Positions 51,266-58,310 of a DNA stretch of 64,000 nt are shown here, piece after piece. Position numbers and translations under genes: made by a program. This DNA is from a virus (taxonomy: Duplodnaviria > Heunggongvirae > Uroviricota > Caudoviricetes), in IMG/VR virus record IMGVR_UViG_3300017978_000250, positions 1 to 64,000 of that record; one strand, written 5' to 3'. The notes beneath the pieces were generated by a model. The model did no database searches, was not told where the DNA came from, and saw only the letters and a list, made by a program, of their open reading frames with translations. How positions within the stretch are numbered: position 1 is the first letter of the stretch; the number at the start of each line of letters is the position of its first letter.

Positions 51266-51948
51266 TTGACAACACTAACTGGGAATTTATCCGCAAAATA
51301 GAAGAAGGATATGAATGCTCAACTAACGTACTATACGTTCCCACAATAAGCCCAGAGAAAGATAAAATGTGTATGCACTTCACGGAAGATGCAGCAGAAT
51401 ACATGAGGGGTAGCTGTGTTCCTCGCACCCCTGAATTAATGGAGACTTTTTTCCAGCGTGAATTAAAATACTTAACACTATTTCAAGGAAAGCCATGGTG
51501 CCCTGAGATATTTGACGTTGATCCTGTCGAACGAAAGATTCTCGTAGAATTCAATAAAGAGAGTCTTAATAAGCCTATTAGGACTGAGAGCAGGTCGTTA
51601 GATAGTGAGTTCCCAACTTGGAAACAAGATTTATTCGAAATTATCAAGGATGTACACGACTCAGGTTATATCAAGTCTTCTTTATACCCTCACTGTTTCT
51701 TTTATACTAACTCAGGACAAATGAAGATGATTGATTACTATGCAACCATAGAAAAAGATGATACTTTACTTCATAAGAGTTTAATTGAGCCAATTATCGG
51801 TGTTGATTCTCATCAACGATTTGTTGAAGTGAAGGAAGGGGATTATTATCAAATGAGGGATCATTTTAAAAACTCATTGAAGACTTGGATTAAATGGCCT
51901 GGGGATCCCTTGCCTGAGTTCTTTGAAACGATTTTTGGTAATAAATGA
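51262..51948 (+). CDS. hypothetical protein (paralog of 59420-60109)
   Basis: Shared motif SLYPHCFFY..G.MKMIDYYA versus SLHPSSYFIVDGKLKSMNYFFA. Confidence 0.55.
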   Translation: MIDNTNWEFIRKIEEGYECSTNVLYVPTISPEKDKMCMHFTEDAAEYMRGSCVPRTPELMETFFQRELKYLTLFQGKPWCPEIFDVDPVERKILVEFNKESLNKPIRTESRSLDSEFPTWKQDLFEIIKDVHDSGYIKSSLYPHCFFYTNSGQMKMIDYYATIEKDDTLLHKSLIEPIIGVDSHQRFVEVKEGDYYQMRDHFKNSLKTWIKWPGDPLPEFFETIFGNK

Positions 51949-53411
51949 GTAATCATACACTATTAGTAAATGTAATGCTCACTGAAGCATACCCTAGACA
52001 TGCAGGGGTATACAGGATTGCAACGTTTCTAAGAGAACTAGACTGGGACTGTGAAGTTTTAGACTATACTCTAGTTTGGTCATTGAGTGAACTAAAAGAG
52101 TTTGCACGGTCTAGAATAACTAAAGACACTAAGTTTATTGGCTTTAGTCAGTTGTTCACTGCTTGGACACCTATCATGGAAGACTGGTGTGCTTGGATGA
52201 GAGAAACATGGCCGCACTTAATCTTCATTGCCGGAGCGCCTGCGCCTCCTACATATGAATCAAAACAATTAGATTATTACGTCAGCGGTTACGGTGAAGA
52301 AGCACTAATTGTTCTATTAAAGTATTTGTTTTCGAACGGTCCTAGACCCATATTTGATTTAAGTATATCTACTTCAAAGAAGATAATCAGCGCAGATAAA
52401 AATTATAAAGCATTTCCTTACCCCAAGTTAACTACTCTATATGAAGAAAGAGATTTTATTCGTCCTGAAGAATGGATTGCAATAGAAACATCACGCGGGT
52501 GCATCTTTAAATGCGACTTTTGTAGCTTTCCTATCCTTGGGGTAAAAGAAGATTACACTAGGTCACAAACTGACTTTGAAGTTCAAGTTAAAGAGTCTTA
52601 TGATAAGTGGGGAATTACTAAGTTTAATGTCGTAGATTCAACGTTCAACGACAGAATTGACAAGATAGAAAAATATGCAGACGTTGTTCAGTCACTCCCG
52701 TTTAAGCCATTGTTCGGTGGTTATATTCGAGGAGATTTGTTAGTTACTAGACCCAGAGATAGAGAAGAATTAGCTCGAATGAACTTTGTACAACATTACT
52801 ATGGAGTAGAGAGTTTTAATAAACCATCAGCAAAAGCAATTCACAAAGGATTAGACCCCGAGAAAATGAAAGAGGGTTTAATGGGTGTTAGAGACTATTT
52901 TGTTGATAAAGTTAAAGAAGACTATGTGGGTTGTATTGGATTAATTATTGGTCTACCCCACGAGACTAAAGAAACTATAGCCAACAGCTTTCAGTGGTTA
53001 GAAGACAATTGGAGTGACCAAGCACACTCACTTATACCATTAGCAATTTGGCGTAAAGAGTTTACTAATAACACAAGTGCTATCTCATTAGATTATGAGA
53101 AATATGGTTATTCTGAAATGTCAATTGAAGAAGGTCTACAACGTGCTAAAGAAAAAAATGTAAATTTTTATATCGATTCAGACCCATCAGATGCATTAAC
53201 ACCTGATTCAGGCATCACATTAATTTCTGAAAGACTTTGGAAGAATGAGCATATGGATATATTTGATGCTCATAGAATATGGCAGGATGCTAACGAAAGA
53301 ATGTGGTGGAGAGATAATCACTTCTCAGCAGGAAGAAAAGTCATACAAGAGTTAATAGTAGAAGGTAAGCCATTCGTTGAATGGTATAAAGATAAAAAGT
53401 TAGGAAAATAA
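51945..53411 (+). CDS. B12-binding-domain radical SAM enzyme (class B-like)
   Basis: N-terminal Rossmann-like B12-binding-type region, ETSRGCIFKCDFCSFP CxxxCxxC; paralog of 56847-58310. Confidence 0.75.
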   Translation: MSNHTLLVNVMLTEAYPRHAGVYRIATFLRELDWDCEVLDYTLVWSLSELKEFARSRITKDTKFIGFSQLFTAWTPIMEDWCAWMRETWPHLIFIAGAPAPPTYESKQLDYYVSGYGEEALIVLLKYLFSNGPRPIFDLSISTSKKIISADKNYKAFPYPKLTTLYEERDFIRPEEWIAIETSRGCIFKCDFCSFPILGVKEDYTRSQTDFEVQVKESYDKWGITKFNVVDSTFNDRIDKIEKYADVVQSLPFKPLFGGYIRGDLLVTRPRDREELARMNFVQHYYGVESFNKPSAKAIHKGLDPEKMKEGLMGVRDYFVDKVKEDYVGCIGLIIGLPHETKETIANSFQWLEDNWSDQAHSLIPLAIWRKEFTNNTSAISLDYEKYGYSEMSIEEGLQRAKEKNVNFYIDSDPSDALTPDSGITLISERLWKNEHMDIFDAHRIWQDANERMWWRDNHFSAGRKVIQELIVEGKPFVEWYKDKKLGK

Positions 53412-53412
53412 G

Positions 53413-56045: not shown

Positions 56046-56046
56046 A

Positions 56047-56859
56047 TTAATAGCTTTCTAAATGGTCTATGCCAAGTTTCTTTCTAAACTCATCTGTGAA
56101 CTTTCCATCAATTCTAATAGAATACGTCTGAGCCATTACTTTATTTCCACCGTGCCAGTCAACGTCATTCCACCATGCACATCTAGTGTTTAATCCATAT
56201 TTGTTTTTAGTCTCAGGATCCCATAGATAGAATTGATTACGTGTATCGGGGCGAACATGAATAAACTCATTACGATGTGGCTTAACAACGTTGACACCGT
56301 TCTTTGCGTCTAAGTCTCTATGCTCGAAGGGTAATCCATCGTGCTCACAATGAAAGAATATAACACGTCCAATGTCTTTGAATATAGTTCCCACCATTGA
56401 CTCAACCCATTTAACAGTGTTGGGGAAGTGACTTGCTTCTTCTGTTAGCTTACGGGGTGCTGTTCTATCATCCCATGAACCTTCTTCCCATAAGTAATAA
56501 TAGATATACGGATCATACGCTCCCATTGCCATCTTTAAATATCGTGTGAATACATTGCGTTGTTTAAAGTCTTTAAAGTCATTCGGGAATATAGTCTTAC
56601 CTGTCACTACGATAGGATCAGTCTCTGGTAGTTTCATATATTCATTAAACGCTTCATAGATAGGCTTCCAGTTATGCTTATAGCTCATGTCTTCAAACGT
56701 AAAGCCTGGCGCCATCCATGTACCTTCTTTAGCATAGTGTCGTGCAGTTGCGAAACCTTTGTATATCTCGGGCTGTAACTTATCAAACGTTTCCATATCT
56801 ACATATGGTTCCATGTTGATATATGGTTGATTATTAATTCCTTTTATCATTTTGTCCAA
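56047..56859 (-). CDS. hypothetical protein (possible oxygenase-like)
   Basis: 270 aa; FFHCEHDGLPFEHRD His/Asp-rich segment. Confidence 0.5.
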   Translation of the reverse strand: MDKMIKGINNQPYINMEPYVDMETFDKLQPEIYKGFATARHYAKEGTWMAPGFTFEDMSYKHNWKPIYEAFNEYMKLPETDPIVVTGKTIFPNDFKDFKQRNVFTRYLKMAMGAYDPYIYYYLWEEGSWDDRTAPRKLTEEASHFPNTVKWVESMVGTIFKDIGRVIFFHCEHDGLPFEHRDLDAKNGVNVVKPHRNEFIHVRPDTRNQFYLWDPETKNKYGLNTRCAWWNDVDWHGGNKVMAQTYSIRIDGKFTDEFRKKLGIDHLESY

Positions 56860-58310
56860 TCTAATTTCTTACGTTTATAATTTTCAATAAATCTATGCAT
56901 GTTTGCTGAGTCATCGTTATACTTAGGATATTTAATGATGTCCTCGATATTGTTAGTATTATACTCGATAAATCCTGAAATTGCATTAAACCCGGTACAA
57001 CTATAAGAATCATATCTAGTCTCGTAGAAGTCTTTTAATATGTCCATGGCTTGTACTTGATCCATATCATCATGTTCCCATATGATTAAGTCATCTAGTC
57101 CAGGATAGAAACTAAGCATGTCTGGCTTCTTGTCTACTTTTTTCTTTCTAAGTCCGTACTTTTCTAAGTTCTTTGAGAACTCGCTTAGATTAGACATATT
57201 AGAGTTATACTCGGGTACTTCTAAGTACCACGATGTAACGCTTTGACCGCTCCAATTATCTTTACACCAGTTAAGCCCATCGTTGAATGTTTCCGGAGAT
57301 TCTTTGGGCAATCCGCATATTAAACTAACAGTGCCTCTATACATATTATGTGGCTCAAAATAGTTTCTAGCATCTATTAACCCTTGCTTCAATACGTCAG
57401 GGTTCATGCCCTTACCGATAATCTTACCCGCAGCATGATTAAATGTTTCAACACCGTAAAAATGTCCACCTAATCCCATCTCTAGCATCTTATCCCAATG
57501 ACTACGTTGTTTAATTAACAAGTCTGCTCGCATAAATGCCATAAACCATGGCTGAAAGTCTAATCTACTAACGGCTTGTGAATACTTTTCAATCTTTTCT
57601 ATTCTGTCGTTGAATGTTTCATCAGCAATAGTATAGTTCTTAATGCCCCAGTTATCGTAGTTAAATCTTAGTTCACTTTCAAAGTCTTCTGAACTGCGAG
57701 ACAAGTCTTCTTTAACTCCTAGTATTGGGAAGTTACAAAAGTCACATTTGAATTTACAACCCCTGCTTGTTTCAATAGTAAGCATTTCAATTGGTTCTAA
57801 AAAGTCTCTTTTTTCATGCTTATTACTATATGTGGGCAAGTTCCATGCTGGGAAGTTGTGTAATGCTCTAATGACTTTGCGTCCATTATCTATTTCAAAT
57901 GTTAGTCCCGTGTGAAATACTAAGTTACCCGCAATATACTTGCATAACTGTAACATAGCAACTTCCCCGAAACTGTCAACCCAATAGTCTATATTCTGTG
58001 CGGGGGTAATCAAGCACCCATGACCACCTAGTATAGTTGCAATGTCCGGGTATGTTTCTTTAAGCCATTTAGTAAAGAGATTTGCGTCATCCGGCCACCA
58101 ATTAATAAAAGAACTAAAGCCAAAGAACTTAGTCTCTGGAGTTACTCTGCTACGAACAAACTCTTTTAGTTCTTCTAATGTGAACTCAATACAGAAATCT
58201 AATACTTCAACATCCCAGTTCTGCTCACGTAAGAATGTAGCGATACGATGGGCTCCCGTACCTCGATGACCATGTTCTTTGCGATAGCTAAACATTAAAC
58301 CATGCTTCAT
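56847..58310 (-). CDS. B12-binding-domain radical SAM enzyme (paralog)
   Basis: ETSRGCKFKCDFCNFP; N-terminal region parallels 51945-53411 (RIATFLRE...DVEVLD). Confidence 0.75.
   Translation of the reverse strand: MKHGLMFSYRKEHGHRGTGAHRIATFLREQNWDVEVLDFCIEFTLEELKEFVRSRVTPETKFFGFSSFINWWPDDANLFTKWLKETYPDIATILGGHGCLITPAQNIDYWVDSFGEVAMLQLCKYIAGNLVFHTGLTFEIDNGRKVIRALHNFPAWNLPTYSNKHEKRDFLEPIEMLTIETSRGCKFKCDFCNFPILGVKEDLSRSSEDFESELRFNYDNWGIKNYTIADETFNDRIEKIEKYSQAVSRLDFQPWFMAFMRADLLIKQRSHWDKMLEMGLGGHFYGVETFNHAAGKIIGKGMNPDVLKQGLIDARNYFEPHNMYRGTVSLICGLPKESPETFNDGLNWCKDNWSGQSVTSWYLEVPEYNSNMSNLSEFSKNLEKYGLRKKKVDKKPDMLSFYPGLDDLIIWEHDDMDQVQAMDILKDFYETRYDSYSCTGFNAISGFIEYNTNNIEDIIKYPKYNDDSANMHRFIENYKRKKLDWTK

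Follow-up and report, generated by a model that had tools for sequence, protein, structure and literature searches.

The window analysed here is a stretch of 64,000 nucleotides from an uncultured jumbo T4-like phage (Caudoviricetes; positions 1 to 64,000 of IMG/VR virus record IMGVR_UViG_3300017978_000250), and it carries an enzyme island of about 24 kb in which two paralogous radical S-adenosylmethionine (SAM) genes of the cobalamin (B12) type enclose or adjoin four genes for predicted small 2-oxoglutarate (2OG)/Fe(II) oxygenases. Judging from their sequence trees, the duplications behind both sets of paralogs are old. The explanation that we favour, tentatively and with a little less than even confidence, is that these genes encode tailoring enzymes of a multi-enzyme island that would act late on a fibre-type protein or on a glycan attached to it. 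The island and the six genes in question, which are named below by their first coordinate, are as follows.

39669-63979, both strands: enzyme island, ~24 kb (open reading frame [ORF] map, gap list, Pfam and NCBIfam scans)
51945-53411, plus strand: B12-type (class B-like) radical SAM enzyme, paralog A, 488 residues, intact (Pfam, BLASTP)
56847-58310, minus strand: B12-type (class B-like) radical SAM enzyme, paralog B, 487 residues, intact (Pfam, BLASTP)
53413-53985, plus strand: predicted small 2OG/Fe(II) oxygenase, distant paralog, 190 residues, HWD...H plus Lys (BLASTP, alignment, tree)
54516-55040, minus strand: predicted small 2OG/Fe(II) oxygenase, 174 residues, HID...H...R (BLASTP, alignment, tree)
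55042-55548, minus strand: predicted small 2OG/Fe(II) oxygenase, 168 residues, HRD...H...R (BLASTP, alignment, tree)
55545-56045, minus strand: predicted small 2OG/Fe(II) oxygenase, 166 residues, the modelled member (BLASTP, alignment, AlphaFold model)

The paralogy of the two large proteins, which a first-pass annotation of this DNA had proposed, was borne out by BLASTP (42% identity over 383 residues, E 2e-106), and both contain the radical SAM core ETSRGC(I/K)FKCDFC(S/N)FPILG (CxxxCxxC) that had been read in them. Pfam Radical_SAM (PF04055) matched at 45.5 bits (51945) and 46.8 bits (56847) against a cut-off of 29.5, and the cysteines C185-x3-C189-x2-C192 are invariant among 36-40 homologs, which places the proteins in the radical SAM superfamily. 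Their N-terminus had also been described as B12-binding-like. This holds for the fold of 56847-58310, the member that was modelled: its AlphaFold model (predicted local distance difference test [pLDDT] score 91.4) has an N-terminal Rossmann domain, resembling that of the cobalamin radical SAM enzymes TsrM, CysS, MgmA and TokK, and a radical SAM barrel. It falls short at the level of Pfam B12-binding, which scored just under its cut-off of 32.1 bits in both proteins (30.4 bits for 51945 and 23.0 bits for 56847). A profile search of the PDB ranked the methyltransferases TokK, MgmA and CysS at the top (E 7e-9 for TokK and 5e-7 for CysS), while a PDB search with the single sequence of 56847 returned nothing. 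About half of the B12-type homologs listed have a precomputed PF02310 match. Taken from model and profiles, cobalamin binding by these enzymes is likely.

It is unlikely, in our estimation, that the B12-like domain is instead free of cobalamin and that the large enzymes carry out a non-methylating reaction such as dehydration, cyclisation or ring contraction (compare AprD4, BchE, HpnJ and OxsB). AprD4 has the same architecture and no cobalamin, and it matches the B12-type protein as well as TsrM does; the sub-threshold Pfam scores and the occurrence of the non-methylating HpnJ, BchE and BzaD among the best NCBIfam matches also fit such a reading, against which stand the methyltransferases ranked first by the PDB profile and the PF02310 matches of about half of the homologs. 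None of the NCBIfam class B subfamilies (PhpK, HpnJ, HpnR, ladderane, ApyD, BchE, MgmA) came near its curated cut-off, the best scores, all of them partial, being 55 bits against 600 (PhpK family) and 51 bits against 360 (ladderane family). Methylthiotransferases of the MiaB/RimO kind were ruled out, since the N-terminal domain lacks conserved cysteines for a second cluster; Pfam found no TRAM domain. The class B methyltransferases TsrM, TokK, CysS and MgmA have, like the window proteins, an N-terminal Rossmann domain followed by a CxxxCxxC radical SAM barrel, and TokK and CysS methylate repeatedly, a chemistry of the kind that the first-pass annotation had proposed. However, the window proteins are only 13-18% identical to these four, are ~490 residues long with a different C-terminal domain, and belong to a family found only on phage-like metagenomic contigs and contigs of metagenome-assembled genomes (MAGs).

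The four small HxD...H proteins had been taken for relatives of one another, and all-against-all BLASTP agreed. The closest pair is 55042 and 55545 (41.5% identity, E 6e-34); 54516 is ~30% identical to each of these (E 2e-20), and 53413 matches 55545 at E 1e-7 and 54516 at E 3e-6. H94, D96, G115, H116 and N149 do not vary across an alignment of 38 sequences, in which the conservation of H145 and of R155 is 90% or more; 53413 aligns in the H, D and H columns and has Lys in the R155 column. The AlphaFold model of 55545-56045 (pLDDT 94.9) has a jelly-roll (double-stranded beta-helix) fold, in which the residues of the expected iron triad, HxD...H, and the basic residue fall on strands 90-94, 145-149 and 155-163. 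Viral collagen prolyl hydroxylase and mimivirus lysyl hydroxylase are among its structural neighbours. When a library of viral structures was searched, uncharacterised proteins of uncultured phages were nearest (best 33% identity), followed by giant-virus Asp/Asn hydroxylases and cyanophage 2OG oxygenases. Considering the conserved motif residues, the modelled fold and these neighbours together, we assign 53413, 54516, 55042 and 55545 as predicted small 2OG/Fe(II) oxygenases. The PF05118 cut-off of 22.6 bits was not reached by any of them (15.4 bits for 55545; no match for 53413, 54516 and 55042). Among 5.8 billion proteins, 55545-56045 has 35 homolog clusters, all metagenomic and unnamed, three of which carry a precomputed PF05118 match. 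The AspH family (PF05118), PBCV-1 vCPH and mimivirus lysyl hydroxylase share with the window oxygenases the jelly-roll and the HxD...H motif, together with a basic residue on the next strand, but the window enzymes are very small (166-190 residues), have a family-specific N-terminus (MKYIGNYKDWI...) and possess an extra invariant G115-H116 pair and N149. The start MKY(V/I)GNYKDWI, which had been attributed to three paralogs, occurs in two ORFs; the third oxygenase opens MFEFIKNEKDWV.

The arrangement of these genes differs from that first described. Since the two large genes face each other, the pair is convergent and not divergent, and the plus-strand and minus-strand units meet at 53966-53985. 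Six ORFs (190, 185, 174, 168, 166 and 270 residues) lie between the large genes. They do not form a block of four tandem oxygenases, as 53413 is on the opposite strand and is parted from the others by an orphan of 185 residues; similarly, the minus-strand segment 53966-56859 does hold three oxygenases, but it is not one unit and comprises five ORFs, two of which are unrelated orphans.

53966-54523, minus strand: conserved orphan, 185 residues, last gene of the minus-strand operon (no family match)
56047-56859, minus strand: very conserved orphan, 270 residues, between the B12-type enzyme and the oxygenases (no family match)

Orthologs of the smaller orphan are 61-82% identical in three related phages (L002, L014 and L020). 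Pfam, PHROG, NCBIfam and PADLOC gave no match to it, a PDB profile search found nothing significant, and neither BLASTP nor the oxygenase profile related it to the oxygenases; a short-chain dehydrogenase/reductase (SDR) fold, guessed by eye, was dropped for want of support from the PDB profile search. The larger orphan, 67-81% identical in L002, L003, L005, L007 and L014, contains the string HRD...WHGGN...R and had no match in Pfam, PHROG, NCBIfam or the PDB profile search. An oxygenase fold guessed for it by eye was likewise dropped, as hhalign against the oxygenase profile found no relation.

The duplications had been called recent. To the contrary, comparison with 13 related loci from IMG/VR, and more from other assemblies, indicates that the paralogs are old and that each has separate orthologs in related phages. 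In a neighbour-joining tree, 51945 pairs with one gene of L002 (58-60% identity) and 56847 with another (82%), whereas identity between the two window paralogs is only ~40% in the same comparison. Each of the four oxygenases likewise heads its own orthologous clade, that of 53413 containing orthologs of L002, L005 and L003, that of 54516 those of L002, L005, P0033 and P0035, and that of 55042 the L002 ortholog. Because each paralog is closer to its own orthologs than to its sister copy, both the B12-type and the oxygenase duplications appear from these trees to be old. A distinct role for each copy, along the lines of the subfunctionalisation first suggested, is plausible, and would fit old paralogs kept as separate orthologous lines.

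L001-L007, L014 and L020 carry the island's gene set in rearranged form, and the island is shared by seven metagenomic phage lineages other than the phage of the window. Operon order is kept in the window, L001, L002, L014 and L020; L002 has the layout of the window without an ortholog of 55545. In L005, two B12-type genes stand in tandem away from the core operon, while L003, L004 and L007 have one B12-type copy and a third type, 28% identical. The parts of L014 and L020 that were read each contain a single B12-type gene, and no ortholog of 51945-53411 was found in them, which makes it the accessory copy; 56847-58310 is the copy retained in the core operon in most relatives, L005 excepted. 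No ortholog of 55545-56045 was seen in L002, L014 or L020, so it is an extra copy. The L014 operon has two small oxygenases, and that of L020 has two together with an additional ORF of 194 residues that matches no window protein. In L014 (1-21467), the block 42554-63979 has the reverse orientation with respect to the first three genes of the island (39669-42599); this whole-block inversion suggests the island limits 39669 and 63979. No match to window genes 44281, 46185, 48231, 51945 or 55545 was found in L014 1-21467. The island is a rearranging mosaic in which gene content, and not order, is conserved across lineages. Since copy number and order differ between phages, the layout with flanking paralogs is a feature of one sub-lineage and no functional architecture.

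The core unit is a minus-strand operon read leftward from 59365 to 53966, in the order zinc-ribbon radical SAM enzyme, 56847-58310, 270-residue orphan, two or three oxygenases and 185-residue orphan, to which a converging plus-strand unit adds a kinase-fold protein, 51945-53411 and the fourth oxygenase. With a [4Fe-4S]/SAM site and cobalamin, the B12-type enzymes would methylate unactivated carbons; each small oxygenase, using Fe(II), 2-oxoglutarate and O2, would hydroxylate a different position. Both groups, together with the seven other radical SAM enzymes, would work on one elaborate substrate. The start of this operon bears a motif that may speak to its timing.

59386-59393, minus strand: TATAAATA, T4-type late-promoter-like motif, 21 nucleotides upstream of the ATG of 58307-59365

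The motif has three sites in the window (59386-59393, 49103-49110 and 5938-5945), all on the minus strand and each a short way before the start codon of a gene on that strand; two of them head island operons. (N)ATAAATA stands at the same place upstream of the zinc-ribbon gene in L001, L002, L005, L014 and L020, and its conservation at the operon head in five lineages hints that the core operon may be transcribed late. A scan for sigma-70 promoters and terminators gave counts equal to those expected by chance.

One gene of the island provides a candidate for the substrate.

61313-61882, minus strand: tail-fibre-tip or receptor-binding-type domain protein, 189 residues, candidate substrate (profile search)
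61247-61312, minus strand: 66-nucleotide out-of-frame duplicate of the 3' end of 61313-61882, encoding LIYNEDTHKFQGYANGTWVDLH and a stop in another frame

In the window, L001, L002, L014 and L020, 61313-61882 sits between two AspH-like genes. Its close family comprises 19 clusters restricted to this phage group, and HMMER searches of 1.84 billion representatives with the 61313 profile found 1,103 relatives. The entire 61313 domain forms the C-terminal half of proteins of 300-500 residues that start with Mtd_N, a domain of the Bordetella phage tropism determinant; an Mtd_N protein with a C-terminal half 40% identical to 61313 adjoins the island in L020 (6582-7919). The final ~27 residues of 61313 (NGMIIYNxETxKFQGYANGxWVDLH) are repeated up to 14 times in proteins of two to five thousand residues, and the two scanned large relatives that gave domain matches are P0178 (2,761 residues; YadA_head repeats and Peptidase_S74) and P0193 (742 residues; DUF2793). 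The 61247-61312 duplicate is probably a recombination scar, which would reflect allele exchange at the conserved C-terminal motif. Among giant viruses, hydroxylases are used to modify the fibre proteins of the virion, as in the model favoured here. That the substrate is a virion fibre or receptor-binding-type protein (the 61313 family and its Mtd_N relatives), or a glycan attached to it, is our best guess, though a doubtful one. The stronger proposal, that the island is a hypermodification machine for the phage's own receptor-binding fibre and would install C-methylations, hydroxylations and other radical changes, we consider distinctly unlikely. If true, it would amount to proteusin-like chemistry on a folded virion protein, with a hardened or diversified fibre, or a changed host range, as possible outcomes.

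Several observations weigh against late, concerted modification of a fibre. The structural neighbours of the oxygenase also include enzymes acting on sugars or small molecules (HygX, AviO1, EvdO2, SnoK and proline hydroxylases), and TATAAATA occurs in the window no more often than chance predicts (3 found against 4.2 expected). Radical SAM enzymes want low oxygen and 2OG oxygenases need O2, and because of these opposing needs a strictly concerted pathway is not obvious. In addition, co-location with a fibre-like gene could reflect a hypervariable host-range region, as in pelagimyophages (PMC7029224).

Some of the same observations bear on another explanation, that what the island produces or tailors is an unusual sugar, glycan or small molecule, for example in virion glycosylation or host-surface remodelling. 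Its substrates would then be sugar- or lipid-like, as for GenK, AprD4 and HygX in aminoglycoside pathways. We regard this as rather unlikely, only a little more so than the fibre substrate, although it gains from the sugar enzymes HygX, AviO1 and EvdO2 among the best oxygenase matches, from the AprD4 match, from the finding that scans of the radical SAM enzymes showed no N-terminal peptide-recognition domain and from a faint Glycos_transf_2 match in the L014 ortholog of the first island gene (39669-40973). Pelagimyophage hypervariable regions, moreover, pair glycosyltransferases with radical SAM cassettes (PMC7029224). However, no scan detected a nucleotidyltransferase, 4,6-dehydratase or aminotransferase of the sugar-nucleotide type, the glycosyltransferase match is faint, and the folds guessed for 48231 (of the pyridoxal phosphate [PLP] type) and for 53966 (SDR) went unsupported.

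These pelagimyophage regions are the nearest published description of such an island. The hypervariable "host recognition cluster" is defined as an island between VrlC and gp14 with tail-fibre genes (PMC7029224); it combines fibre genes with glycosyltransferases and with radical SAM cassettes, which are mentioned without enzymology, and the same phages have an AspH-like core gene (PMC7029224). As in the pelagimyophage and cyanomyophage clusters, the setting here is an aquatic myophage of the T4-like kind whose large island is non-syntenic (PMC7029224). The window island differs in being dominated by enzymes (nine radical SAM enzymes and at least five oxygenases) and in having a fibre-type gene inside it, and the window, which ends at the island's right edge, shows no structural module; the pelagimyophage paper mentions no B12-type enzymes (PMC7029224).

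The enzyme mix also recalls the proteusin/polytheonamide pathways, in which C-methyltransferases of the B12 type, a radical SAM epimerase and an Fe/2OG hydroxylase act on one polypeptide. The window island differs from these in being phage-borne and in that its candidate substrate is a folded fibre-type protein and no short peptide. A phage cluster of this type for a ribosomally synthesised and post-translationally modified peptide (RiPP), whose precursor would be methylated, hydroxylated and released as a toxin or signal, is very unlikely in our judgement. SPASM and twitch domains are present, and there are weak NCBIfam matches to ApyD and to the "RiPP maturation radical SAM C-methyltransferase" family, at scores far under the family cut-offs. 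The reading is weak because no precursor gene, RiPP recognition element (RRE), protease or exporter was found: RRE, leader peptidase and exporter domains were absent from all island scans, and the island is so densely packed, its genes overlapping or abutting with intergenic gaps of 54 and 71 nucleotides only, that it leaves no space for a precursor gene. All 11 ORFs in the region 51000-59400 abut or overlap.

Hypermodification of nucleic acid, whether of phage DNA against restriction or of neighbouring tRNAs, is the last alternative. The island directly follows an array of 44 tRNA genes (24381-38883), every one on the minus strand, and radical SAM enzymes are reported to participate in phage thymidine hypermodification (PMC8989533). 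We nevertheless hold it to be highly improbable: the N-terminal domain of the B12-type enzymes has no second-cluster cysteines of the methylthiotransferase kind and Pfam finds no TRAM domain, the oxygenases are nearer to protein hydroxylases than to AlkB or TET, and no TET/JBP, DNA glycosylase/transferase or hydroxymethylase gene was detected in the island scans. The tRNA array itself represents 20 of the 20 amino acids, with several tRNAs duplicated.

In all, the island, whose right end coincides with the window end, holds nine radical SAM genes, at least five oxygenases, two kinase-fold proteins, the tail-fibre-tip-like protein and several orphan genes. The remaining genes that could be assigned are as follows.

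40948-41937 (plus), 43197-44288 (plus), 44281-45321 (plus) and 45301-46197 (minus): four radical SAM genes within 40948-46197
46997-48244, minus strand: N-terminal twitch radical SAM enzyme (NF033640 N_Twi_rSAM, 341 bits against a cut-off of 170)
49060-50568, plus strand: N-terminal twitch radical SAM enzyme (NF033640, 394 bits against a cut-off of 170)
50540-51265, plus strand: possible AspH-like oxygenase, 241 residues, HSD...H...R (Asp_Arg_Hydrox E 0.012, 15.9 bits, below cut-off)
51262-51948, plus strand: kinase-fold protein, 228 residues (paralog of 59420-60109, E 5e-12)
58307-59365, minus strand: radical SAM enzyme with N-terminal HMPTM-type zinc ribbon (Zn_ribbon_HMPTM 62.8 bits, Radical_SAM 55 bits)
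59420-60109, plus strand: kinase-fold protein, 229 residues (paralog of 51262-51948, family profile)
60654-61241, minus strand: possible AspH-like oxygenase, 195 residues (Asp_Arg_Hydrox E 0.0017, 18.7 bits, below cut-off)
61879-62577, minus strand: AspH-family 2OG oxygenase, 232 residues (Asp_Arg_Hydrox 56.5 bits against a cut-off of 22.6, E 3.8e-15)

Pfam Radical_SAM was over threshold in 40948, 43197, 44281 and 45301, with SPASM in 43197-44288; 40948, 44281 and 45301 are mutual paralogs by BLASTP, and two orphan genes lie among the radical SAM genes of 40948-46197. The two twitch enzymes are paralogs of each other (BLASTP, E 2e-46) and are divergent, with the orphan 48231-49097 between them; the PLP fold guessed by eye for this orphan was dropped when a PDB profile search gave no support. 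Distant homologs of 49060-50568 occur, in unannotated clusters, in the cultured Vibrio phages K566/K567 and in Ralstonia phage RsoM2USA. Four such N-twitch homologs lie inside ~7 kb of Vibrio phage K566, ~10 kb upstream of its nicotinamide phosphoribosyltransferase (NAMPT) gene. The zinc-ribbon gene 58307-59365, first of the minus-strand operon, has partial NCBIfam matches to TrsS and Tes.

Among the island oxygenases, 61879-62577 alone was over the Pfam threshold. Comparison of single sequences with the oxygenase profile by hhalign was uninformative for 50540, 60654 and 61879, the weak match of 50540-51265 covering 86 columns. The profile of the kinase-fold family matched TTK (3e-6), CIPK23 (5e-4) and Bud32 (1e-3) in the PDB. 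By eye, the catalytic-loop Asp is not conserved in the pair, for which reason 51262-51948 and 59420-60109 may be pseudokinases, if they are not atypical kinases. ORF 59420-60109 overlaps the plus-strand ORF 59949-60653 by 161 nucleotides; since orthologs of the latter align only from about residue 31-51, its true start is probably further downstream. A PHROG scan of 21 island ORFs found no specific PHROG and only generic radical SAM matches, for 58307, and PADLOC gave only generic matches at the radical SAM level (PDC-M51A at 45-52 bits, pVip at 36 bits), with none for oxygenases and orphans.

The assignment of the window to a jumbo T4-like phage agrees with the rest of its gene content, which includes rIIA, rIIB, NAMPT, a NadR-like gene and an RNA ligase, and with its 44 tRNA genes.

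8052-11163: rIIA/rIIB

The closest match of rIIA, at 38% identity, comes from the PA5oct group of jumbo Pseudomonas phages. An NAD salvage pair lies on the minus strand at 2682-5886 and consists of nicotinamide phosphoribosyltransferase and a NadR-like cytidylyltransferase/NUDIX protein. In the 155-kb relative L020, the sequence beside the island (1-6600) carries a gene like that for serine hydroxymethyltransferase (SHMT), a cytochrome c, a ferredoxin-like protein and two 2OG-FeII_Oxy_5 genes, a set that resembles those of marine cyanomyophage- or pelagimyophage-like phages.

Outside such uncultured phages, relatives are scarce. A nucleotide search of the region and of the first 25 kb against 50,697 phage records found no match, and neither did tblastn of the B12-type enzyme and oxygenase 55545 against the 50,697 records of cultured phages; counting these two, three proteins were searched and had no match in a cultured phage. 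When two peptide patterns, which divergent relatives may escape, were run against 185,579 species genomes, they picked up only three proteins related to the B12-type enzyme, each of them on a MAG contig. In metagenomes, by comparison, the B12-type enzyme has more than 1,000 homolog clusters and hundreds of close homologs, some on contigs of 200-550 kb. The island and its enzyme families thus appear close to virus-restricted. Both superfamilies are well known, and our literature search found no account of a phage island combining B12-type radical SAM enzymes with multiple 2OG oxygenases; these particular families are probably uncharacterised and the island type is probably new.

Should a fibre protein prove to be the target, the island would represent a new phage route to altering host-recognition structures, as well as a new source of B12-dependent C-H methylases. 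Should the product instead be a small molecule or glycan, the island would be among the largest phage biosynthetic clusters known. In either case, the 61313-family protein is a concrete candidate substrate.

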